This document shows positions 6,657-63,051 of a DNA stretch of 64,000 nt, in pieces. The translations under genes and the position numbers were made by a program. A model generated the notes under the pieces. That model searched no databases, was not told the DNA's origin, and saw only the letters and a list, made by a program, of their open reading frames with translations. The stretch's first letter is position 1. Each line of letters opens with the position of its first letter. The DNA comes from Eledone cirrhosa. Taxonomy: Eukaryota. The stretch is from assembly GCA_964016885.1 (NCBI GenBank), contig OZ024753.1, positions 30,442,001 to 30,506,000 on the forward strand. The letters run 5' to 3'.

Positions 6657-7052
6657 TTCATTTCATTCATTTCATTTCATTTCACGTCCGCTTTTCCCTG
6701 CTTGCAAGGGTGGGACGGGAACTGATTCTGGCTTGATTTCTACAGCTGGATGCCCTTCCTAACACCAACCTCATTTACAGTGAGTGCTGGGTGCTTTCTT
6801 TCCGTGGTGCCTACACGTCCACTTTTACAGTGTGGGCTGGGTGCTTTTTTGCCGTGGCACCTCCACGACCACTTTACAGTGGAATGATAAGGCCCCAAGA
6901 CCCTATCATCTCATTTCTACAGCTGAGTAAACTGGAGCAATGTGAAATAAAGTGTCTTGCTCAAGGAAACAACACATCACCCAGTCTGAGAATTGAACTC
7001 ACAATCTTTCGATTGCAAGGCCAATGCTCTAACCACTAAGCCATGTGCCTCC
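6657..7052 (-). mobile_element. tRNA-derived SINE with RTE-derived 3' tail
   Basis: Reverse complement of the 9901 SINE: A/B-box head, core, RTE 3' UTR segment and tail. Confidence 0.85.
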
Positions 7053-10739: not shown

Positions 10740-11086
10740 CACCAATCTCTCTCTATATATAAATATATATATATATATACATATGCAAAAGTTCTATTTA
10801 AATTGTTGGGATACAACAAGCAAATATTTTTATAACTGATATAAAGCACTCGACAAGTATTTGGAGTAGATATACGATATTAACAAATGGAAACTATATT
10901 TATAAAACCATATTTATTTCATTATACATATTTCAAGGATACCAAGTTAAATTATGGTATGCCTTCATCAGACAAAATACAATATATACCAGTTTTATAT
11001 TTCAGGACATCCTGATGTCTTCCAAAAGTAACTGTTGCATTTTGAAAGGGTACGTCAATGTTTATTTATAAAACTGGTATATATTG

Positions 11087-11151
11087 TATTTTGTCTGATG
11101 AAGGCATACCATAATTTAACTTGGTATCCTTGAAATATGTATAATGAAATA
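11087..11151 (+). ncRNA. Type I hammerhead ribozyme motif (identical copy on minus strand at 10915-10979)
   Basis: Stem I TATTTTGT/ATGAAATA, core CTGATGA, stem II AGG-C-ATACCA/TGGTAT-C-CTT, GAAA, quasi-palindromic stem III ATATGTAT, predicted cleavage after AUA. Confidence 0.65.
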
Positions 11152-11191
11152 AATATGGTTTTATAAATATAGTTTCCATTTGTTAATATTG

Positions 11192-11222
<31 letters not shown>

Positions 11223-24474: not shown

Positions 24475-25965
24475 TTAGGCTTCAGAAGAAGGCTCAATGT
24501 CACAGTCATCAACATCTTCAAGTTCATCCTCATCAACATCATCACCTTGTTTATCTCTTTTCTCAACAGCATCAGCTTCAACTCCTTCTCCAACACGTTT
24601 TCGTTTCCTTTGCTTAAACTTTCTATGAGGGGGTGGCAAGGGCTCCATGTCAAGTACCTTGCGGATTCTTCTAAAAGCTATCAGTCTAAGCATGTGTTGA
24701 GCAGCAGCGGTAATATCCTCTCGGTCCTGAGCAGTCATTTCCATGATAGGGTCAGAAGGTTCTCTTTCACAAGGGTCGTATAGACCCTGGCATGATGGTA
24801 ATATTATTCCGGCAGCTAGACACTCAAAAACTCTACGAAGTGCGTTGCCAGGCCCGAGCACTGCTCTGACGCTGCCTAAACATTTTTCTACCAACAGTTC
24901 CATAGCCCACAGATTTAAATTAGACCAAAGTGGAATCCTTTGAGATAAATCGCGTAAAATCCGCAACACCACTAAACAGTTAGGTAGTCCGCGTGCTCGT
25001 GCCTGAAACCATTTGGCACGCCTGAGTTCAGCTAATGCATTTAAACAAATTTCTCTATCCAATACATCAGGTGGTTCAGATTCCTCGATGTGCGCATCAG
25101 AATGGGTGTTCAATGCCTCAGTTTCATTATCTATTTTGTTACTACTTTCCTCTCCAGTAGTCTGAACATCCCTTTCTTCGGGGGTCTGGTCAGATCCTTC
25201 TCCTGGTGTTTTACAATCGCTATTATTTGCTTCCTGTTGTCCTTCATCGCCTCCAGGGACGACCGTCCTGTCCATATTCTCCCTCATAATCGGTGATGTC
25301 AAAGAAATTTTACAGCTTATCTTTGGTTCTTTTACTCGAATTACTAAAATAGCAGCCTGTGCGACATTAATCTCCAGCTCATATTTTTCTTCTGTAACAA
25401 GAGATAATTGAGAAGGGAAGCATTCATATATTTGATTGAGCAAAGTTTCGGTGGGCTTTCCTGCAGATAACGCTACAAGTTCGACACAAGTATCAGTTTG
25501 TAATAAAAGCCCATGACCAAACACACCAACGCGTTGGACACCTCTCAGAGAACGATATACATCATCTTGATTGTTATTTTGTTTTGAAGTGTTACTATTT
25601 GGTTTGTTTACCTTAGTGTCTGCCTCTACAGACTCCGTAGTCGACTGCTTATCCTCTTCCTCTTTACGGGTTTCACTATCTACAGACGGTAGTACTGCGT
25701 TTGTAGAGAGTTTATCTGATACTAATTTAAGAGCTTTCTCACAAGCAATAACCATTTTTTGAAAAGCAGGCAATTCAGCAGGGTATAGACTGGCATGTTT
25801 AGCCATGACATGTCGATCATCTGAAGACTTCGGTTGACGAGCATGCCACGGAGGTGGAGGAAAAAAAGGCATTGGGGGTTGTGGCACTGAACCTCGTTTG
25901 TTAAATGGTCGAAAGCGGTTTGGTTTTCCACCATCACCTTTCGTAGATTTTCCTGTTACAGCCAT
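24475..25965 (-). CDS. Intronless DZF-domain protein, ZFR/ILF3/STRBP family (ZFR-like, lacking zinc fingers and dsRBDs); probable retrogene
   Basis: Uninterrupted 496-aa ORF with the DZF motifs of ZFR/NF90 in order: SSDDRHVMAKHASLYP, EKALKLVSD, LRGVQRVG, SLTSPIMRE, PPDVLDREICLNALAELRRAKWFQARA, WAMELLVEK, ALRRVFECLAAGIILP, GLYDPCE, REDITAAAQHMLRLIAFRRIRKVL. Followed by a basic NLS-like KQRKRKR and an acidic tail. In-frame TAA about 11 codons upstream of the ATG. Confidence 0.92.
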   Translation of the reverse strand: MAVTGKSTKGDGGKPNRFRPFNKRGSVPQPPMPFFPPPPWHARQPKSSDDRHVMAKHASLYPAELPAFQKMVIACEKALKLVSDKLSTNAVLPSVDSETRKEEEDKQSTTESVEADTKVNKPNSNTSKQNNNQDDVYRSLRGVQRVGVFGHGLLLQTDTCVELVALSAGKPTETLLNQIYECFPSQLSLVTEEKYELEINVAQAAILVIRVKEPKISCKISLTSPIMRENMDRTVVPGGDEGQQEANNSDCKTPGEGSDQTPEERDVQTTGEESSNKIDNETEALNTHSDAHIEESEPPDVLDREICLNALAELRRAKWFQARARGLPNCLVVLRILRDLSQRIPLWSNLNLWAMELLVEKCLGSVRAVLGPGNALRRVFECLAAGIILPSCQGLYDPCEREPSDPIMEMTAQDREDITAAAQHMLRLIAFRRIRKVLDMEPLPPPHRKFKQRKRKRVGEGVEADAVEKRDKQGDDVDEDELEDVDDCDIEPSSEA

Positions 25966-26401
25966 TGGTTTTAAAATGTATTTCTGCTTATGAATTTATA
26001 TGAGTAACTGTGTTTAAAGTATATTTTTTTCTGGTGAATGAGAACAATTATTACGTGTTTATTTCAGATAAGTTGCTATAAGTAATCAGGAACAACACTA
26101 AAATGTTGCTGATGGTTGTATTACTACTGATCGTCCGTGTATCAGGAATGGCAATACTAACAAGTATAATGCTTGAATGATTAGCACGAAAGTATAACTG
26201 ATATTCTAATAATTTCGGCACTTATATCAACAGCAAGAAAGGACGGGATAAATATTAATTAAAAAAGAAGAAATAAAGAAAGTTACTGACGGAATCCCAC
26301 GCGGCGGCGCCCGTTGCTTGGCTCGGTGCTCTCCCTTGGCAGTCGAGATTCTCGTGCGACTTTACACACAACACTTCTCTTCTCTCACTCGCTGATAAAA
26401 T
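25966..26401. promoter_or_regulatory. Bidirectional promoter / 5' UTR region shared by the DZF gene and LAMTOR3
   Basis: 436 bp between divergent ATGs. CpG/GC-rich patch at about 26290-26360 (CCACGCGGCGGCGCCCGTTG) in an otherwise AT-rich background. YY1-like ATGGCGG overlaps the LAMTOR3 start. Confidence 0.7.
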
Positions 26402-39215: not shown

Positions 39216-39430
39216 TATTAAATTAATATATTTGATAGAATGTTTGTTTCTGTAATTTATTTCATTTCAGTATGGATTGATGTGACAGGAGACCCCCCCC
39301 CCCCCATCCACAGTTCACCCTGCATAGAGGCCATGCTGGTGACTCAAAAAAAAGCACCCAGTCCACTTTGTTGGGTGGTTGTTTTGATGCCACAATATAA
39401 AACTCTCTCTCTATTTATATATATATATAT

Positions 39431-41189
39431 CTTTTCATTGTACGACAACTACAGGAGAAGTACCTAGCTAAAAGTAAACCCCTATACTTAGCTTTTGTCG
39501 ACTTGGGACTCTGTCGAAGGCTTTCTCCATGTTCCATTATCTGGTGGGCTCTTAGAAAACTAGGTGTTGATGAATGGCTTGTGAGAGCTATACAAGCCAT
39601 GTATAAAGAAACAGTCAGCAAGGTTAGAATTAACAACGAATATAGTGAAGAGTTTAGCGTAAAAGTTGGTGTTCATCAGGGCTCTGTTCTTAGCCCCCTA
39701 CTATTTATTATTGCCCTTCAGGCTATAACAGTGGAGTTCAAGACCGGCTGCCCATGGGAACTCCTATACACAGACGATCTAACGCTCATAGCTGAATCAA
39801 TGGCCGAGCTAGAGAAGAAATTCCAAACATGGAAGCACGGCCTAGAATCAAAAGGCCTTAAAATTAACCTGGCTAAGACTAAAGTTCTAGTTTGTAGGAA
39901 AGAAAATAAGGCACCGGTCCCTTCCGGGAAATAGCCATGCTCAGTGTGTAGGAAAGGCGTAGGTAGAAACTCCATTTTATGTCCCAAATGCAAAGTATGG
40001 GTGCATAAAAGATGTAGTGGGATCACAGGTAAGCTAACTAAGAACATAGATTTTACATGTGGCCGGTGCTCTGGTGCAATAAGTAGCAGCAAGTGCCCAC
40101 AAAATACTAGTTCTTTCAATTGCGCAGAGGGTTCTATAGAAATAGTGGACAGCTTCCGTTACCTGGGTGACAAAATCAGCAGTGGGGGAGGGTGCTCTGA
40201 AAGTACAGTAGCTAGAGTCAGAACTGGATGGAAAAAGTTCAGAGAGCTTATACCACTATTAGCCGCTAAAGGGTTCTCCCTAAAAATGAAAGGCAGGTTG
40301 TATGATGCCTGCATACGAACAGCAATGTTGCATGGCAGTGAGACCTGGGCATTGTGTGCAGAGGATATACGCAGACTAGAGAGGAACGAAGCTTGCATTC
40401 TCCGCTGGATGTGTAATAGTAATATACGTGAACGGCAAAGCATAAACGAACTAAGGGAAAAATTAGAAATAAGAGGGATCAGATGTTGTTTACTCGAGAG
40501 AAGGCTATGTTGGTATGGTCACGTGATGCGCATGAAAGACGACAGCTGTATAAAAAAGTGCAGGGCAATAAAGATAGACGGTAGCCACGGAGTAGGCAGA
40601 CCCAGAAAAACCTGGGACGACCTGATAAATTCCGACCTCACACACTTACACCTCTCCAAGACAATGTCACTGGACCGAGATCTTTGGCGGTACTCAGTAA
40701 TAGAGAAGACCCGCCTTACAAAGTAAAACCTACTACAGTCAGTAGGCATCTCTAACAAAATATCCCCCCCCCCCCCCATCCACACCGCCCCTTTCAATGT
40801 AAAGTTATGTTGGTGCCACAACATCCAGGCTGAAACAAATGAGATCGTGTAGGTGTCACGACAAAAAAAACACACAGTCCACGCTGTAATGTGGCCGTGT
40901 AGGCAACACGGTAAAAACCTCCCAGACCCACACTGTAAATGTGGTTGGTGTTAGGAAGGGCATCCAGCTGTAGAAAACTCGCCAGACAGTCCACGCTGTA
41001 ATGTGGCCGTGTAGGCAACACGGTAAAAACCTCCCAGTCCCACACTGTAAATGTGGTTGGTGTTAGGAAGGGCATCCAGCTGTAGAAAACCCACCAGACA
41101 ACCACTCTTGCCTCAAGTGGGAAAACTCCCATCCAAACCCATGCAAGCGTGGAAGATGGACGTTAAACGATGATGATGATGATGATGAT
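39431..41189 (+). mobile_element. 5'-truncated, inactivated RTE-clade LINE (RT + PHD insert + 3' UTR + (GAT)n tail)
   Basis: RT motifs GVHQGSVLSPLLF and YTDD (YADD mutated), FRYLG. Premature TAG at 39932-39934, 25-bp micro-inversion at 39505-39529, internal 3' UTR duplication at about 40875-41100, GAT-repeat tail. Confidence 0.92.
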
Positions 41190-41654
41190 ATATATATATA
41201 TGGCTTAGTGGTTAGAGTCTCGGGCTTAAAATCCTGCGGTTGTGAGTTCGATTCTTGGATATAAGCAAAACATCTTATTTCATATTGCTCCAGTTTATTC
41301 AGCTGTAGAAATGAGTTAGCCCAGCTTTGGGTTAAATAGCTTAACTAACCCATAATTGGCCAAGTGTGCCTAGTACGGCTACACTCCTGACATGACCGAA
41401 AATATTGGAGGTCAATGAGGGAGGGGTTCCTCCAGTAGGAATGAAAAGGCCCTGAATTGAACTGGATATAAAGAATAAATCGAATTTGTAGCCAACAGTA
41501 GAGCAAATACCAATTGAATTGAGACAGTCACAAAGCACTCCATAGTGCGAAAAATTAATATATTTTTGTCCAGAGTAAACAAAGTTAAGTGTGACTCCAT
41601 GAATAAAACCACTAGGTGTATGTCGCCATAGGTTACAAACAGGTTATACATATA

Positions 41655-43543
41655 TCATCATCATCATCATCATCAACGTTTAACGTCCGTGTTCCACGCT
41701 TGCATGGGTTTGGACGGGGGTAGTCCCACTTGAGGCAAGAGTGATTGTCTTGCTCGCATAGGACTGTCTGGCAGGTTTTCTACTGTTGGATGCCCTTCCT
41801 AACACCAACCACATTTACAGTGTGGGTCTGGGAGGTTTTTACCGTGTTGCCTACACGGCCACATTACAGCGTGGACTGTGTGTTTTTTTGTCGTGACACC
41901 TACACGATCTCATTTGTTTCGGCCTGGATGGCGCGGCACCAACATAACTTTACATAGAACGGGGTGGTGTGGATGGGGTGGGGGTGGTGGTGGTGGGACG
42001 GGGTGTATTTTGTTAGAGATGCCTACTGGCTGGAGTAGGTTTTACTGTATATTTAGGTAAGGCGGGTCTTCTCTGTTATTGAGTACCGCCAAAGGTCTCG
42101 GTCCAGTGACATTGTCTTGGAGAGGTGTAAGTGTGTGAGGTCGGAGTTTATCAGCTCGTCCCAGGTTTTTCTAGGTCTGCCTATTCCGTGACTACCGTCT
42201 ATCTTTATTGCCCTGCACTTTGTTATACAGCTATCGACTTTCATGCGCATCACGTGTCCATACCAACGTAGCCTTCTCTCGAGTAAACAACATCTGATCC
42301 CTCTTATCTCTAATTTTTTCCTTAGTTCGTTTATGCTTTGCCGTTCACGTATATTACTGTTACACATCCAGCGGAGCATGCAAGCTTCGTTCCTCTCTAG
42401 TCTGCGTATATCCTCTGCACACAATGCCCAGGTCTCACTGCCATGCAGCATTGCTGTTCGTATGCAGGCATCGTACAACCTGCCTTTCATTTTTAGGGAG
42501 AACCCTTTAGCAGCTAATAGTGGTATAAGCTCTCTGAACTTTTTCCAACCAGTTCTGACTCTAGCTACAGTACTTTCAGAGCACCCTCCCCCACTGCTGA
42601 TTTTATCGCCCAGGTAACGGAAGCTGTCCACTATTTCTATAGAACCCTCTGCGCAATTGAAAGAGCTAGTATTTTGTGGGCACTTGCTGCTACTTATTGC
42701 ACCAGAACACCGGCCACATGTAAAATCTATGTTCTTAGTTAGCTTACCTGTGATCCCACTACATCTTTTATGCACCCATATTTTGCATTTAGGACATAAA
42801 ATGGAGTTTCTACCTACGCCTTTCCTACACACCGAGCACGACCATTTCCCAGAAGGGACCGCCGCCTTGTTTTCTTTCCTACAAACTAGAACTTTGGTCT
42901 TAGCCAGGTTAATTTTAAGTCCTTTTGACTCTAGGCCGTGCTTCCATGTTTGGAATTTCTTCTCTAGCTCGGCCATTGATTCCGCTATGAGTGTCAGGTC
43001 GTCTGCGTATAGGAGTTCCCATGGGCAGCCTGTCTTGAACTCCTCTGTTATAGCCTGAAGGGCAATAATAAATAGTAGGGGGCTGAGAACAGAGCCCTGA
43101 TGGACGCCAACTTTTACGCTAAACTCTTCACTATATTCGTTGTTAATTCTAACCTTGCTGACTGTTTCTTTATACATGGCTTGTATAGCCCTCACAAGCC
43201 ATTCGTCAACGCCTAGTTTTCTAAGAGTCCACCAGATAATGGAGCGGGGGACTCTGTCGAAGGCTTTCTCCAAGTCGACAAAAGCTAAGTAGAGGGGTTT
43301 ACCTTTAGCTAGGTACTTCTCCTGTAGTTGTCGTACTATGAAAAGAGCGTCTGTGGTACTTTTGCCTGACACAAACCCGAACTGCATTTCATCTAGGTCA
43401 ATTCTCTCTCTGATTAGTTGCGCTATTACTTTTTCCGTGACCTTCATGACCTGGTCGATTAATTTAATGCCTTTATAGTTACTCCTATCTAGGGCGTCTC
43501 CTTTACCCTTATAACAGTTAACGATGATGCTGCTATGCCAGTA
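41655..43543 (-). mobile_element. 5'-truncated RTE-clade LINE with an open RT frame (ORF 42053-43546)
   Basis: KGKGDALDRSNYKGI, QFGF, AFVDLEKAFD, GVHQGSVLSP, YADD, FRYLG, RRLRWYGHVMRM, GRPRKTW. (ATC)n tail on the plus strand at about 41655-41675. No endonuclease domain (truncated). Confidence 0.95.
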
Positions 43544-44756
43544 CAAGCAGGGAAAAGCGGACGTAAAATGATGATGATATATATATATTCATACATATAT
43601 ATATGTAATACATATACACATTCATATATATAATATACACATATATATTTTAAACAGACGCAGAAATGATGATACATAGAGATATACACACACACATATA
43701 CACTCACTCACAAAGAAAGATACTTTAGAAACAACTTTTCTTTTTACTCCTTTTTTTCAATGTAACTAACTTTATATATTACACCATCCTACTTGCCATA
43801 ACACAGAAAAATAACAATTTTCGCCTGATTGCCTCGCTTCAATGTTTGCTTCTTGAGATTCAGAAAGAAATGGAGTTAAGATGAAAAAAATGTTTTCAGG
43901 CAGTGCAATTTGTCACTATATTGGTTCAGTTGCCAAAGTGGGAAATTTTCTTGTGTATTGTTGCAATCAGGAAACAGAGTGAATTGAAAAGCAATTAACA
44001 AAAAAATAAACTAAACTAATAATAATAATAGTAATAATAATGCTTTCTGATTTAGGCACAAGGCCAATAATAATAATAATAATAATAATGTTTCTACTTT
44101 TGGCACAACGCCAGCAATTACCCCAGTGCATTACTGGTGCTTTATTTTATCGACCCCTGTAAGGACGAAAGTCAAAGTTAACCTCAGCAGGATTTGAACT
44201 GAGAACGCAAAGGCCTATAACTGTATGCTGCAAAGTATGATGCCTGACGCTCTATCGATTCAGCCAATCCATAATAATAATTGTTTCTACCATTGGCACA
44301 AGGCCAGCATTACCCAGTAGATTACTGGTACTTTATTTTATCGACCCCGTAAGGATGAAAGGCAAAGTCAACCTCGGCGAGATAATGATAAATAAATAGA
44401 AATAAAAAAGCAAGAATGAAATAAATAAATTGATATGAAGTTTGAGCTGTAGCATGGCCAAAACTGAATTACTGAAATCTGTAAAAGAATGAAAGTATGA
44501 AGAAATGTAACAAACGTCCTTTTAAGCAATTACTAACAAGATGAATAGCCAAGAAAATTGATGTGATTCCCCTAGTTTGGCACACTGAAGACTTTTTCTA
44601 CAGCTATTTTCTGTATGTGTAACTGTATAATTCTGTGTGCATATACTGTTATGTGTATGTGTGTGTGTGTATATACTGTTCTGTGTATGTGTAAGTCTGT
44701 ATGTATAGTTCTGTGTGTGTATATATACTGTTCTGTGTATGTGTAACTCTGTATAG

Positions 44757-44790
<34 letters not shown>

Positions 44791-45221
44791 GAAGGCGCAT
44801 GGCTTAGTGGTTAGAGCATTGGGCTTGCAATCGAAAGGTTGTGAGTTCAATTCTCGGACTGGGTGATGTGTTGTTTCCTTGAGCAAGACACTTTATTTCA
44901 CGTTGCTCCAGTTTACTCAGCTGTAGAAATGAGATGATAGGACTGGGGCCCCTATCATTCCACTGCAAAGTGGTCGTGGAGGTGCCACGGCAAAAAAAGC
45001 ACCCAGCCCACACTGTAAAGTGGACGTGTAGGTGCCACGGAAAAAAAGCACCCAGCCCACACTGTAAATGAGGTTAATGTTAGGAAGGGCATCCAGCTGT
45101 AGAAATCAAGCCAGAATCAGTTCCCATATGAGCAAGACAAGGTCAGCCAACATTGCCCACAACAGGACAGCCCGTCTAACCCATGCTAGCGTGGAAGAAT
45201 GGACGTAAAACGGTGATGATG
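44791..45221 (+). mobile_element. tRNA-derived SINE carrying most of the RTE 3' UTR
   Basis: Same head as the 9901 copy; 44970-45221 closely matches the RTE 3' UTR at 52432-52690. Confidence 0.88.
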
Positions 45222-50817: not shown

Positions 50818-50932
50818 GGAACGAGTAGGACCCCCGACGGCTGAGCTCAAGCCGTTTCGACGGCTAATTCTGGACGCAATTATGGTCCACCTGGTTCCTT
50901 ACCACATTTCCTTCGTTATATATATATATATA

Positions 50933-52696
50933 GAAGGTAAAGGCGATGCACTAGATATATATACTAGATATATATACAAAGGTAAAGGCGATGCACTAGA
51001 TAGAGGAAACTATAGAGGTATAAAGTTGATGGACCAGGTCATGAAAGTAACAGAAAGAGTTATAGCACAGCTGATTAGGGACCGGGTGAATATAGACGAG
51101 ATGCAATTTGGGTTTGTTCCAGGGAAAGGCACCACTGATGCGCTCTTCCTTGTGAGGCAATTACAGGAAAAGTACCTAGCTAAAAGTAAGCCACTCTACT
51201 TGGCATTTGTCGACCTTGAGAAAGCCTTTGACAGAGTTCCACGTGCAGTAATCTGGTGGGCTCTTAGAAAACTAGGAGTAGATGAATGGCTTGTGAAAGC
51301 GGTACAAGCCATGTATAGGGGAGCAGTCAGCAAAGTTAGGATTGGCAATGAGTATAGCGAGGAATTTAGCGTACAGGTTGGGGTCCACCAGGGCTCTGTT
51401 CTTAGCCCTCTCCTGTTCATCATAGTCCTGCAGGCAATAACGGAGGAGTTTAAGACCGGATGCCCATGGGAACTCCTGTATGCTGATGACCTCGCACTCA
51501 TAGCTGAATCTATGGTAGAACTAGAGAATAAATTCCAAACCTGGAAGCAGGGACTAGAGAGAAAGGGCCTCAAAGTCAACATGACAAAGACTAAGGTCCT
51601 TATAAGTAGACGAGAAAACAGAACCCAGATCCCCTCAGGGAAATGGCCTTGCTCAGTATGTAGGAAAGGTGTAGGTAGGAACTCCATTCTTTGCCCCAAA
51701 TGCAAACAATGGGTACACAAGAGATGTAGCGGGATCTCAGGAAGCTTAATTAAGAATGTAGGATTCACAAGTACCACCAATCTCTGGGAGGGCCCTGTAG
51801 AAACAGTAGACAGCTTCTGCTACCTAGGTGACCGAATTAGCAACGGAGGTGGGTGCTCAGAAAGTACAATAACTAGGGTAAGAACGGGATGGAAGAAGTT
51901 TAGGGAACTACTACCACTGCTAGCTGCAAAAGGCTTCTCCCTCAGAATGAAAGGCAGACTGTATGATGCGTGTATCCGAACAGCGATGTTGCATGGTAGT
52001 GAGACCTGGGCGCTGAAGGTGGAAGACTTACGTAGATTAGAGAGAAACGAAGCCTGCATGCTCCGATGGATGTGTAACAGTAATATACGTGAACGACAAA
52101 GCATAAATGAATTGAGAGAGAGACTGAGCATAAGAGGAATCAAATGCTGCGTGCAGGAGAGGCGGTTACGCTGGTATGGACATGTGATGCGTATGAAGGA
52201 TGACAGCTGCATAAAAAGGTGCAGAGCACTAGAAGTTGATGGAAACCGCGGAGTGGGGAGACCCAAGATGACTTGGGATGAGGTGATAAGAGCCGACCTT
52301 ACCCAACTACACCTCTCAAAGTCAATGACACACGACCGTGACTTCTGGCGTCACGCAGTAATACAGGGTACCCGACCTCCCATGGGTACATGCTGAAGCA
52401 TATAAACAATATGCCCCCCCCCCACCGCAAGGTGGTCGTGGAGGTGCCACGGCAAAAAAGCACCCAGCCCACACTGTAAAGTGGACGTGTAGGCGCCACG
52501 AAAAAGCACCCAGCACTCACTGTAAATGAGGTTGGTGTTAGGAAGGGCATCCAGCTGTAGAAATCAAGCCAGATCAGTTCCTGTATGAGCAAGGCATGGT
52601 CAGCCGACCAGACACTGCCCACAACAGGACAACCCGTCTAACCCATGCTAGCGTGGAAGAACGGACGTAAAACGGTGATGATGATGATGATGATGA
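50933..52696 (+). mobile_element. 5'-truncated RTE-clade LINE, second subfamily
   Basis: Same RT motifs (YADD, FCYLG, RRLRWYGHVMRM) with clearly diverged sequence. Duplicated 5' junction (AAGGTAAAGGCGATGCACTAGAT twice). 3' UTR and (GAT)n tail. Confidence 0.95.
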
Positions 52697-53457
52697 ATGA
52701 AAGGCAGACTGTATGATGCGTGTATCCGAACAGCAATGTTGCATGGTAGTGAGACCTGGGCGCTGAAGGTGGAAGACTTACGTAGATTAGAGAGAAACGA
52801 AGCCTGCATGCTCCGATGGATGTGTAACAGTAATATACGTGGACTACAAAGCATAAATGAATTGAGAGAGAGACTGAGCATAAGAGGAATCAAATGCTGC
52901 GTGCAGGAGAGGCGGTTGCACTGGTATGGACATGTGATGCGTATGAAGGATGACAGCTGCATAAAAAGGTGCAGAGCACTAGAAGTCAATGGAAACCGCG
53001 GAGTGGGGAGACCCAAGATGACCTGGGATGAGGTGATAAAAGCCGACCTTACCCAATTACACCTCTCAAAGGCAATGACACACGACCGTGACCTCTGGCG
53101 TCACGCAGTAATACAGAGTACTCGACCTCCCATGGGTACAAGCTGAAGCATATAGACAATATGCCCCCACACACCCCACCGCAAAGTGGTCGTGGAGGTG
53201 CCACGGCAAAAAAGCACCCAGCCCACACTGTAAAGTGGACGTGTAGGCGCCACGAAAAAGCACCCAGCACTCACTGTAAATGAGGTTGGTGTTAGGAAGG
53301 GCATCCAGCTGTAGAAATCAAGCCAAATCAGTTCCTGTATGAGCAAGGCATGGTCAGCCGACCAGACACTGCCCACAACAGGACAACCCGTCTAACCCAT
53401 GCTAGCGTGGAAGAACGGACGTAAAACGGTGATGATGATGATGATGATGATGATGAT
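52697..53457 (+). mobile_element. Short RTE copy joined head-to-tail to the preceding copy
   Basis: Near-identical to 51947-52696. Starts directly in the (GAT)n tail of the previous copy and ends in its own (GAT)n tail. Confidence 0.93.
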
Positions 53458-54184: not shown

Positions 54185-55004
54185 GGCATAGGTAAAATAT
54201 AACGTCCGGGAAAGTGAAACTAATTTTTATGACAAGTGAATGTGTTTGTTTTTTAGTATTGCGTGTGTGATTATTTTTTCTTTTTCTTTTTTTGTGTATT
54301 GTGTGTACGGAAAATTATACTTACCTTATCAACATCCTTATTAGACCGTATAAATAGCTGAAATACAGTTGATCATCTCGCCAAATTTGTTGGCACCAAC
54401 TCTCTGCCGCCAATGAAATTCAGCTAAATACGAGGGGAATAAATCGTCGCTTGTCCCATGTTGTCGACGGAGCTTTTTCTTCGCACGGCTCCAAGTGTTC
54501 TCTATGAGTTGTGTGTGCACATTAGGGTCTTCAGGATCGACAAAGTTCCGTTGGTGCACAACAACATCATGGAGGTAAATGCCACCTTGAATTTCCTCAA
54601 TATCAGAATAGGAAGCCCAACCATCGGACATGATGTGGCTTCCTGGCAAAATCCATTCCTGTATAATGGGGACAAGAGTCTCACGAGAGAACACTTGGAG
54701 CCGTGCGAAGAAAAAGCTCCGTCGACAACATGGGACAAGCGACGATTTATTCCCCTCGTATTTAGCTGAATTTCTTTGGCGGCAGAGAGTTGGTGCCAAC
54801 AAATTTGGCGAGATGATCAACTGTATTTCAGCTATTTATACGGTCTAATAAGGATGTTGATAAGGTAAGTATAATTTTCCGTACACACAATACACAAAAA
54901 AAGAAAAAGAAAAAATAATCACACACGCAATACTAAAAAACAAACACATTCACTTGTCATAAAAATTAGTTTCACTTTCCCGGACGTTATATTTTACCTA
55001 TGCC
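54185..55004. mobile_element. Non-autonomous Merlin (IS1595/IS1016-like DDE) element made of two inverted 3' ends
   Basis: Minus-strand transposase C-terminus ETLVPIIQEWILPGSHIMSDGWASY...VVHQRNFVDP...HTQLIENTWSRAK...YLAEFHWR. 318-bp inverted arms (54185-54502, 54687-55004) starting GGCATAGG. Identical 9-bp flanks CATATATTT. Confidence 0.9.
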
Positions 55005-55118: not shown

Positions 55119-55193
<75 letters not shown>

Positions 55194-55395
55194 CCAAGAC
55201 TGGAATTGAATCATCAGCACAGTTGAGGTATGTCACACATCAATTTATATATTTTATCTGATGAGGACGTACTGAAAAAACAGCACAGTACCTCCGACAA
55301 ATATAAATGTTTATAACTGATTTAGAGCACTCAACAGTTTACTGGAGTATTCAATGATATTAAATAAATGGAAACTATATTTATAAAACCATATT

Positions 55396-55458
55396 TATTT
55401 TATTATATATATTTCAAGGGTACCAAGACACATTGGTACGCTTTCGTCAGATAAAATA
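55396..55458 (-). ncRNA. Type I hammerhead ribozyme motif
   Basis: Minus strand reads TATTTTAT-CTGACGA-AAG C GTACCAA tgtgtc TTGGTAC C CTT-GAAA-TATATA-TA-ATAAAATA; perfect 8-bp stem I. Confidence 0.7.
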
Positions 55459-56824
55459 CATCCAACCGATAAGGTATGATTTTCATGGGTATGTCTCTAT
55501 TTATAAAACAAACTTTGTATTATATCTGATGAAAGCGTACCAATGTGTCTTGGTACCCTTGGAATATAAATAATAAAATAAATATGGTTTTATAAATATA
55601 GTTTATTAAATTAATGATGGCATGTCTGAGAAACATGTGCCATACCACCTGTAGAATAAGCTCAAAGATTCTAAGAGAACATTTATTAACATTAAATTAA
55701 AAATCGATTGACACATATATATATATATATATATATATAATAAAATAAACACAGCAAACAATTAAAGGGGCTGCTATTTCTAGCTGTCGATAATCCTATT
55801 AATGTCACTAGGTTCACAGCGGGGCGATGTGTATTTTTCTTTTAAAACCACACTTGCTTTTCATCATTTCCAGATTTGTTTTTCGTGTTTAATCACAAAT
55901 AGTTAAATCTCCTCTTTTGAGATGATCCTGGATTTAAGATCTGTGATTTGCCTATTAATGGTGAAATATATTTCTTTAATGAAAGGAGATTAATCATTAT
56001 TGCAAGGTATCTTATATTTGAGGTTCTCGTTAATTTTTAATATGTTACCTGTAATTGTTTGATGTTTATTTATTTTATACATATATATATATATATATAA
56101 CGCCAACCATTGTAAGTTCGTAATCTGACTTACATAGAGACACACGTACGTGACCAAATCCTAGGACACACACTCACACACAGAGACAGAAATGAAACTC
56201 AGGTTACTGCTTCAAATCAAACCTGGGTAGGTGAACAACATTGTAAAAAAAGATCTGGTGTTGTTCATGCCTTTCTGTTAGTCAATAATATAAACAGGAG
56301 AGGGTCGGACGCCATGCTTTCCAGCATACTTACGTCCCTTTACGATCTGAGTTCAAATCCCGCCGAGGTTGACTTTGCCTTTCATCCTTACGGGGTCGAT
56401 AAAATAAAGTACCAGTAATGAACTGGGTTATTGCTGGCCTTGTGCCTAAAGTAGAAACAAATAATATAAACAGGAATTCTCGTCGTCGTAACCGACGGAG
56501 TGTCACTGCTCTCTCTCTCTCTCTGTCCCTCTCTCTCTCTCTCTCTCTCTCTTTATATACACACATATATATATATGTATGTTTAAGTTAAATTATATAT
56601 CAAATACAGAGAGAGAGAGAGATACATATGTTCATACAAAACTGAAACATTTTCACGCCGATTTTTGCGATTTGTCTGTACCTGTGCACTCTGTACTAGA
56701 GACTCTATTGAAGTTTCAGATGTTGCAAACAGTTTCAAATTGTCCATAAAACAACAGGTAGTTTCAAGTAAAGTCAGAAGCATCTTTCCGCAACTCATAC
56801 ACTACCATCACTTTCCTCAGTACT

Positions 56825-58973: not shown

Positions 58974-59709
58974 ATTTCTATATTAAATATATATAGACAG
59001 ACAGATGTGTGTGGAAGATATTTCTGTTCATTGGTGAGGATCAAAATCTCGACCTTCGGATGTATCAATTGTTATTTAAATTTATTTAAAAAAAATCATA
59101 TTTCCTAAAAATGTAGCATGACCTGATGCAGCGTTCTGATTGGTCCACAAGAACTGTATAGCTCGCTCGGGTATTTACAAAACCAAGCAGAAACAGTGGG
59201 CTTGCTTTTTACCGCCGTTTATGGATATTACTCTTTCAAGCCCATGTTCAATTCTCGAGATTAATTTTTATTCGCATTCAAATTAATTTTTCCTGTCGCA
59301 TTCCTAATTGGAAGTTGGCTTATATTTTGGTAGAAAAGTTCTTCTAGGCTTCTTTTAAATAAGAAGTAGGTTAGCCTTAAAATTGTGTTCAATACAGCTC
59401 AAATTCATCAATTTACATTTCGAATTAAAAGTTGTGACATATATATGCGTCGAGTTTCTGTGCAGGTTCCACGCAAAGGAATACCATGAAAAAAAAGTGC
59501 CCCAAAACGGGGAGAAATGAGGCAAAATGGGGAGATTTTTCATAATGAAAACTATACCCATTTTCACAAGAGAAGACATCTTTCACCCACCCCAAAGTGG
59601 GTGGGAGATCTCCCCGTCAGACAGGGAGAGTTTTTCAGCAATTAAATTCTACTCTTTCTGTCATAAAGACTCACAAACACTTTACTATTGTATTTATTTG
59701 TATATACCA

Positions 59710-60070
59710 GACATATGCGACTAAACCAGGTTCTACTGCACTTCGGGCTGAGGAGGGCAAACTCTCCAAGTACCGGTCGCTCTTCGACAGGCTTGCGGTC
59801 GTGCCCATAGCAGTGGAGACTTCTGGTGTCCTTGGCCCTAGGGCTACCTCCCTACTTACCACCATAAGCGATGAGCTGGCTAGCCGCAGGTGTGAGCCTC
59901 GCGAGATGGAATGGCTCTTTCAGCGCATCTCCCTTACCATCTTCCGAAGAAACGCCTTCTCCATTCTGTCCGCCGGGACCGTGGGGGAGGCCAGCACGTG
60001 GGACCCCATAATAATGAGAGATGGGGAGGACGAGAGAGATGGAGGCGATGACAGCGGGAGTTCGGCTCTT
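59710..60070 (+). mobile_element. 3' fragment of an RLE-type non-LTR retrotransposon (CRE-like)
   Basis: AEEGKLSKY...VPIAVETSGVLGPRA...FQRISLTIFRRNAFSIL resembles the C-terminal restriction-like endonuclease region of CRE-clade elements. Confidence 0.7.
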
Positions 60071-60595
60071 CAGTGTTCGGACACATTTATCAATTCTATG
60101 TTGCTGTTGATATTTTGTCTTTCGTGATCGCATGAAATACGTTATATTGAAATTACCCAGATAAAAAAATAGTTTTACAATAAACGGAGGTTCGTATCTA
60201 TATTGTTTCCGTTGATTGTGTTAATATTTCACAAGGAGGAATAGGCTCCGTTCTTAACGTTTATTTTATATTTATGTATGACTTCTCTGAGTTTCTTTTC
60301 CATCTACTTTATTGTATCTACTACTTTAATATGATAAAGATGTTCCTAGAAATAATAATGAAACACTCATTCATTGTATTTATTATGGCTGTCTACTTGA
60401 TACATTGAGTAGCTTACCTTAATTGAGGTTCTGTTATTTAATGGAAAAGCACACACACACACACAGACACACAGACAGAGAGAGAGAGATGGAACATTCC
60501 AACCGCGGCGCCAAGCGATTTCGTTATATCTATCTATATATACATACATCGATATACATACATACATCTACACACACACACACACATATATATAT

Positions 60596-61563: not shown

Positions 61564-61958
61564 GTGATATATTAGTAAAAAGGAAAAGAAAATGCTGACA
61601 AATTTTTCCCAGTGAAAAATAGTTTAATTAGGAATAAGTATAAATTAGTAATAAGTATTGGTTAGTATTCAGTTTTAAGTTTTTACCGGTTGCGCATTTC
61701 TAATGCTTTTCAAAAATAATTTTGAGATAGAGCGCTGGTGATGTTTGCTCTAATCAGATTAGAGCAAACATCACCAGCGCTCTATCTCAAAATTATTTTT
61801 GAAAAGCATTAGAAATGCGCAACCGGTAAAAACTTAAAACTAAAACTGAATACTAGCCAATACTTATTACTAATTTATACTTATTCCTAATTAAACTATT
61901 TTTCACTGGGAAAAATTTGTCAGCATTTTCTTTTCCTTTTTACTAATATATATATCAC
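61564..61958. repeat. Near-perfect palindrome, arms about 190-200 bp, 1-nt centre at 61756
   Basis: ...GATGTTTGCTCTAATC-A-GATTAGAGCAAACATC...; arms differ only by a substitution and small indels. Confidence 0.95.
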
Positions 61959-62595: not shown

Positions 62596-63012
62596 TTAGT
62601 CTGGGACTAGAACAATTTTACAACTTTCAGAAAGACTCGAGAGGCTGACATCTTTCTCTGTTGATTCTTTTAGTGAGTACATTTTGCTACGGTTCAATGA
62701 AGTATTTCTACTTGTAAACGACACTGTACCTCGTTGCATCCAGATTCGATCTGCTCCGGTAAAACGACCTCGAAATAAAGTGAGGAATGAATGTTTGAAT
62801 TTTTCACGGAAGTTTTTCGACATAAACGAATAAACTATTGGGTTAATACAGCTATTGAAGTAGGCCATCAAGTTAAATGCCATACGCATTGGTTTCAAGT
62901 AACCATAATGTAATCGTGGTAGGTATTCAAATCCGATCATAACGTTATTAATAAGAATTGGTGCCCAGCAGATAATGAAGAGAAGTACTACAACGACGAG
63001 CATTTTCACAAC
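62596..63012 (-). CDS. Terminal coding exon of a class A (rhodopsin-like) neuropeptide GPCR, TM6-TM7 plus C-tail; upstream exons not identified in this window
   Basis: Phase-0 acceptor GTTCTTTTGTTCTCCACAG|GTT. Encodes VVKMLVVVVLLFIICWAP (TM6 CWxP) and MAYFNSCINPIVYSFMSKNFR (TM7 NPxxY, helix 8), then a Ser/Thr-rich tail. Subfamily (QRFP/CCK/orphan-like) not resolved. Confidence 0.92.
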   Translation of the reverse strand, partial: VVKMLVVVVLLFIICWAPILINNVMIGFEYLPRLHYGYLKPMRMAFNLMAYFNSCINPIVYSFMSKNFREKFKHSFLTLFRGRFTGADRIWMQRGTVSFTSRNTSLNRSKMYSLKESTEKDVSLSSLSESCKIVLVPD

Positions 63013-63051
63013 CTGTGGAGAACAAAAGAACATTATTATTTAGTTAGAGTG

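Follow-up and report, generated by a model that had tools for sequence, protein, structure and literature searches.

The window (a 64,000-nt stretch of Eledone cirrhosa DNA) contains five hammerhead motifs, with cores starting at 10971(-), 11095(+), 55258(+), 55450(-) and 55526(+), which were retrieved by a descriptor combining the core with stem II. In its strict form, this descriptor gave 5 matches in the window as compared to 0 in 100 block-wise dinucleotide shuffles. A looser motif scan added two matches, both without the stem of 3 pairs, a C-C mismatch and 6-7 pairs that marks the five, and when a covariance model was built from the five, it retrieved nothing further from the window except, as a sixth match, the antisense of the 55526 stem. 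No Rfam hammerhead family reached the gathering threshold in the window, and none appeared at E values up to 10 in 55190-55720, where only generic hairpin models matched, below threshold; Rfam hammerhead models may not cover minimal dimer-type variants. The type I core (CUGANGA/GAAA/NUH, with an AUA triplet) and the three-helix junction are intact in the motifs at 55450(-), 10971(-) and 11095(+), while the core is broken in 55526(+) and truncated in 55258(+). An intact core in the minus-strand copy at 55450 had already been proposed in a sequence-only reading of this DNA, and the motif scan confirmed it.

The 55.3-55.6 kb locus begins with a truncated plus-strand copy of a divergent subfamily (55193..55292), composed of a leader, the 5' strand of stem I, a core at 55258-55264 and a stem II at 55265-55292 with its C-C at 55268/55292, and cut off near 55293. 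The 3' tail of the left, minus-strand copy follows (55293..55371), with two small hairpins, and then the left arm of the fold-back, also on the minus strand (55372..55460), which holds an intact hammerhead: core at 55450-55444, stem II at 55443-55416 with the C-C at 55440/55419, GAAA at 55415-55412, a palindromic stem III at 55412-55405, and a stem I pairing 55458-55451 with 55403-55396. From the motif anatomy and the fold prediction, the cut would fall between 55404 and 55403. The spacer between the arms (55461..55515, plus strand) is the 5' leader of the right copy and carries, at 55498-55509, the 5' strand of a distal 12-bp stem I helix, whose 3' strand lies at 55587-55598 in the right arm (55516..55604, plus strand). 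The right-arm hammerhead is decayed, with a core at 55526-55532, stem II at 55533-55560 and the C-C at 55536/55557 followed by GGAA at 55561-55564 and a broken palindrome. This GGAA had been noticed before as standing in place of GAAA, and we consider it a private mutation since the sister arm is intact. The 110 nt between the right arm and a (TA)n run (55605..55714, plus strand) have no other copy in the window and form a hairpin of their own, which is as far from the ribozyme as the tail hairpin of the family but differs from it in sequence; this segment is possibly the tail of another subfamily.

A second locus at 10.8-11.2 kb consists of a left copy on the minus strand (10786..10999; tail 10786-10866, arm 10867-10999, core from 10971) and a right copy on the plus strand (11000..11199; leader 11000-11066, arm 11067-11199, core 11095-11101, C-C at 11105/11128), each with an intact hammerhead. 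The homology of the two loci, suggested earlier by eye, was borne out by blastn (72% over 351 nt, E 8e-47). Arm complementarity is 98% over 133 nt in the 10.8-11.2 kb locus and 96% over 89 nt in the 55.3-55.6 kb locus. Since the two arms of a fold-back are copies of each other, the five motifs cannot be counted as five independent copies and represent three independent stem II haplotypes. Three hammerhead copies had been claimed previously; these motifs are real, and their coordinates and stem II sequences at 11102, 55396-55458(-), 55533(+) and 55265 were all correct on re-check, but the window has five motifs (10971(-) had gone unnamed), of which three versions are independent.

Alignment of four out of 11 read and contig sets (X1; X5, from organism B; X7, from organism D; and X9) to 55225-55530 at 80% likeness showed that the repeat is abundant and present in at least three organisms. 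Family members were found in 6,822 contigs of X1, 53 of X5 and 10 of X7, and in 28,279 of the 12.47 million reads of X9, a reduced-representation library in which read counts are not copy counts. A 2,960-nt contig (X7 record 22) was considered as a full-length element and rejected, having a 37-nt match with 7 differences and flanks unlike the family. Neither viral nor metagenome contigs contained a match to a family-specific pattern (0 in each), and a blastn search of phages was likewise without a match. A broader pattern matched 2 viral and 77 metagenome contigs; none of these 79 had a type I stem I longer than 4 bp when checked by script, and they were treated as chance matches rather than relatives.

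These reads and contigs also bear on the truncated copy, in which GACA at 55296 had been taken for an altered GAAA core. An organism B contig (X5 record 11) is identical to 55293-55349 (0 differences) and continues leftward like the tail of the second locus, a tail that is also matched by G>A at 55296 in 136/792 reads. Reads of the 55258 type have an intact core beyond stem II, with T at 55294 (256/503), A at 55298 (474/802 X9 reads) and T at 55300 (476/1,170). The contig and these reads speak against a decayed core. The sequence from about 55293 onwards, including the GACA and the flank noted with it, most likely represents the 3' tail of the minus-strand copy, with GACA and part of the TCC strand derived from the junction. 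The contig match and the continuation of the reads thus suggest that the neighbouring insertion truncated the 55258 copy where its stem II ends, with short microhomology. Reads of the 55258 type also join the downstream sequence of the other subfamily on the opposite strand, with joints from 55272, 55280 and 55293 to 55426, 55423 and 55417, respectively.

After the core, the intact copies have an 8-nt self-complementary stem III, the AUA triplet and an AU-rich stem I of 8 pairs. For the 67-nt 55450(-) unit, the minimum-energy homodimer was a double hammerhead (-28.0 versus 2 x -11.7 kcal/mol) and the monomer was predicted to misfold, so that this short unit has a palindromic short stem III able to pair between two copies. 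The predicted dimer of the 11095 unit had stems I and III correct, with stem II slipped to a bulged C. When longer flanks were included, a 12-bp distal helix was predicted at both loci to extend stem I past an interrupted segment, which would account for the long invariant block 3' of the cut; the predicted dimer was then no longer the active fold. Whole fold-backs were predicted to form hairpins of -125 to -210 kcal/mol in which the hammerhead motif is buried. Based on these fold models the motif is probably a minimal type I hammerhead that acts as a dimer. Position 10.1-11.1 is mostly A-U and the extra base after A9 is absent; the published consensus, at more than 80%, is G10.1-C11.1 with an extra base between A9 and 10.1, with published exceptions (PMC4209133). 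An ORF starting at the ATG in the core was discarded, as read by eye it stops within 9-13 codons in both intact haplotypes.

From the sequence, fold and layout evidence combined, the two loci probably hold short copies, arranged head-to-head, of an octopod repeat that is abundant, bears a minimal type I hammerhead and is likely the pseudo-LTR (pLTR) of a Penelope-like element (PLE), with a predicted dimer-only self-cleavage and a C-C mismatch that is likely, although not demonstrably, under selection. The sequence-only reading had missed that stem III is of the dimer type, that stem I is extended and that the layout is Penelope-like.

Stem II follows one plan in all five window motifs, with 3 pairs, a C-C and then 6-7 pairs (6-8 in the motif overall), and the constancy noted previously (3 bp, C-C, 6-7 bp, in varying sequence) holds in 5/5. 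Among the five aligned rows, two-sided change is seen at 5/9 stem II positions and the C-C column is unpaired in 5/5. A shuffle control of this alignment gave 0/500, which we do not take as significance since it ignores kinship and arm duplication. ViennaRNA gave the C-C register as the minimum-energy fold for two haplotypes; for the 11102 haplotype, a slipped register in which a C is bulged was preferred to the C-C mismatch.

Variation in the reads largely followed the pairing. Among the 40 best-supported of 124 variant places, those in stem II fall at 55416, 55417, 55420, 55438 and 55443, of which 55416 and 55443 together make up a change of pair 1 from A-U to G-C, and none falls at the four C-C positions. 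In the core of the 55450 copy only N7 appears in the same set, and N7 varies in both cores (55446 and 55262; 916/1,079 and 294/889 reads). Variants in stems I and III are A>G opposite U, at 55400 and 55401 in stem I and at the single place 55408 in stem III (15,892/24,678 X9 reads), where the palindrome is kept via tandem wobbles. These patterns support the earlier suggestion that the hammerhead structure is under selection in the parent elements, as the stem II changes are compensatory or wobble-preserving.

The C-C itself, for which a tertiary role had also been suggested, was followed into the loose ends of reads and contigs. We examined 24 of 372 such ends, 13 of which lie behind 55412-55434, reading them by hand and assuming window or common-variant letters on the aligned side; 3 of the 13 could not be read, as one was unrelated, another too short and the third out of register. 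The 5' C of the mismatch was kept in 9/10 of the readable ends, among which pairs 1, 2, 5, 6, 7 and 8 vary, and the single exception is an organism D contig in which pair 3 is broken as well. Since the C-C outlasts change at nearly every other pair and is kept in the 55258 subfamily, in a sample that is small and related, we lean slightly towards its being kept by selection. A tertiary role is only plausible, since the sample is related by descent and pair 3 is nearly as constant.

The strongest competing explanation, to which we give somewhat less credence, retains the ribozyme and its Penelope-like origin and holds that the C-C is an ancestral mismatch, tolerated and functionless, that persists as the subfamilies are related and transversions are rare. 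The evidence for constancy comes from three window haplotypes and about ten read-end haplotypes of a single family, in which the C-C is not much more constant than pair 3 (G-C except in the 55258 subfamily), and the 11102 fold may slip to a bulge. Single mismatches also occur at this position in 2/56 published PLE hammerheads (U-U in Clonorchis 2 and C-A in Strongylocentrotus 1; PMC4209133). However, pairs 1, 2, 3, 5, 6, 7, 8 and 9 each vary somewhere in the sample and the C-C does not; its 5' C lies in a CpG in two haplotypes, yet change is seen on the G side only. The tally of X1, X5 and X7 contains no G>C place, its sole C>G place being 55342, and no repair of the C-C to a Watson-Crick pair; in X9 there is one G>C place, beyond the 40 best-supported.

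Much of this architecture has precedents. The minimal hammerheads found in PLE pLTRs share with the repeat, according to PMC4209133, a type I topology with a conserved core, a long helix II and AU-rich flanks, a helix III that is palindromic or missing so that dimerisation is needed, and many variable families per genome, with opposite-strand pairs 100-700 bp apart. In contrast to the repeat, where the C-C at 10.4/11.4 is constant, A-U usually closes stem II, no extra base follows A9 and stem I has 8 bp plus the predicted 12-bp distal helix, those ribozymes have a stem I of 4-5 bp, and inspection by eye of Fig. S3 of that source found a C-C in 0/56; its list of minimal hammerheads names no cephalopod. 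Hydra-clade PLE hammerheads, as described in PMC8557442, resemble the repeat in their (TA)n preference, a near-palindromic stem III of 3-4 bp, a frequent A at the cleavage site, several members without the extra base, and an octopus member. The ribozyme of this member, Hydra-1_Obim of Octopus bimaculoides, differs from that of the repeat, and unlike the repeat, 0/34 rows of File S2 of the same source have a stem II C-C by eye. Six family motifs were absent from the PLE consensus supplement of PMC8557442, in which line breaks could hide a match. PAc (Poseidon, Anolis; PMC11167929) likewise has stem-loops within ~100-150 nt after the hammerhead, where insertions end, AT-rich targets and priming of both strands; its ORF starts in stem II, from where the repeat has no conserved frame, and the activity of its ribozyme, which is protein-assisted, was tested experimentally, whereas that of the repeat is predicted.

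We found no description of the family or of its C-C in the hammerhead/C-C or octopus/cephalopod literature searched. The hammerhead class and the fold-back layout are already known, and the constant C-C and the extended stem I appear to be undescribed in the papers covered. A more speculative and rather unlikely proposal is that of an undescribed architecture, in which the C-C at 10.4/11.4, where the canonical loop 2 would start, docks on the interrupted long stem I as a tertiary contact in a dimeric PLE ribozyme, and in which splicing competes with self-cleavage because the ribozyme is part of a pLTR intron.

The layout of the fold-backs points to how they were formed. At both loci two copies lie head-to-head with their 3' ends outward, the left copy being ~80 nt longer at its 3' end and the right copy 55-67 nt longer at its 5' end. 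In other contigs, left arms cut at 55331, 55349, 55372 or 55391 join a right copy starting 7-15 nt before 55461, among joints with at most 40 letters between them, a limit that biases this sample. Many 3' ends of reads and contigs abut (TA)n at 55348-55366, and each locus fills the gap between two (TA)n runs, although the window holds 154 such runs. A 17-nt direct repeat flanking the second locus was not counted as a target-site duplication because it lies within degenerate (TA)n. Described PLE insertions have an inverted 5'-truncated copy, a tail of 30-40 bp and a (TA)n bias (PMC8557442), and head-to-head is the most frequent PLE arrangement (PMC3846280). The head-to-head arms and unequal tails match PLE insertions, with a left-copy tail of ~80 nt that is longer than the one described, and the (TA)n flanks may do so too. 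All three leaders contain the donor-like sequence GGTAYGT (10 sites window-wide), which lies 28-49 nt downstream of the 5' start and precedes the core by 30-45 nt; in D. virilis Penelope, an intron begins 46 nt after the transcription start (PMC2377424). In the 55.3-55.6 kb locus these candidate splice donors lie at 55228, 55474 and 55489 on the plus strand, but the G at 55489 is A in 145/755 X9 reads, which weighs against a donor. Recently active Penelope-like families are also reported for Octopus vulgaris in PMC13282606. No RT or GIY-YIG ORF adjoins either locus, as judged from the ORFs by eye; the element behaves like a PLE pLTR and is likely to be one.

In vitro, a PLE protein cuts both strands, extends them and begins copying within the RNA, downstream of the ribozyme (PMC11167929). 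We propose that this both-strand, internal-initiation mechanism also applies to these fold-backs. Two ribozymes, located on one strand or on separate RNAs, would pair via stem III, and each is predicted to cut after AUA. A PLE RT-endonuclease may nick AT-rich DNA on both strands, and reverse transcription would start within the RNA at a short distance 3' of the ribozyme, producing a pair of short cDNAs that are joined 5' end to 5' end and have unequal tails. The fold-backs in the genome would be dead products, as a read-through transcript would form an 89-133 bp hairpin burying the ribozyme; inserted copies could for this reason decay while selection acts on the transposing parent RNA.

A non-LTR retrozyme, spreading via tandem repeats and circular RNA and leaving fold-backs as side products, would be an improbable source. 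Like the repeat, retrozymes are short, non-coding and AT-rich, have type I hammerheads and are abundant in animal genomes (PMC7229834), and a preprint derives them from pLTRs (10.64898/2026.07.22.740005). However, they are described in the former source as head-to-tail tandems of ~300 nt with canonical ribozymes, whereas the window holds no head-to-tail tandem of the unit, the copies are head-to-head and truncated with ragged ends, and the ribozyme is of the minimal type with a long stem II rather than the canonical type with a 4-bp stem II. Capture of a hammerhead by the terminal inverted repeats of a MITE-like DNA transposon would fit the long inverted arms and the arm and spacer sequence common to both loci. 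It is highly improbable, however, given that neither the arm lengths nor the two breakpoints are constant from locus to locus or from contig to contig, outer ends are unequal, variation follows RNA pairing (G-U included), and at each locus the two arms share a stem II version peculiar to that locus, so that each fold-back must have formed separately from a single template.

PLE minimal hammerheads cleave poorly in vitro, no tertiary contact is recognised in them, and what they do in transposition is still a question. With its many subfamilies at high copy number, its fixed mismatch and its extended stem I, the family provides a ready alignment for asking whether a tertiary contact is hidden in such ribozymes. 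The both-strand, internal-initiation model of how PLEs insert can also be judged against the short fold-backs, which count as genomic evidence on it. With two of them in 64 kb, the fold-backs could also give rise to large amounts of long double-stranded RNA, in a host lineage known for heavy A-to-I editing.

Elsewhere in the window, an intronless 506-codon stop-to-stop ORF (24475-25995, minus strand) encodes a DZF-domain ZFR-like protein, with its best named match in Argonauta hians (84%) and only ~44% to an Octopus ZFR entry; it looks like an old, conserved retrogene. The Argonauta match places the window in an octopod. A near-perfect palindrome at 61570-61945, with ~185-nt arms and almost no spacer, lies between (TA)n runs and has no relationship to the hammerhead family. 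Three heads resembling tRNA, whose scores only just exceed the Rfam threshold (6982-7045, minus strand; 41194-41263 and 44798-44861, plus strand), are probably tRNA-derived SINEs. RT-bearing LINE fragments with a zinc-finger-like insert, which we take to be RTE-like, are found at 39401-40726, 42053-43588 and 50819-53146, those at 39.4-40.7 kb (plus) and 42.0-43.6 kb (minus) being near-identical inverted copies. A transposase-like fragment at 54341-54848, presumably ISXO2/Merlin-like, has overlapping ORFs on both strands with near-identical C-terminal sequence, which suggests an inverted duplication. The segment at 59549-60127 (plus) resembles what we assume to be the restriction-like endonuclease end of a non-LTR element, and 62596-63039 (minus) holds the last exon of a class A GPCR-like gene, covering TM6-TM7 with an NPxxY motif.
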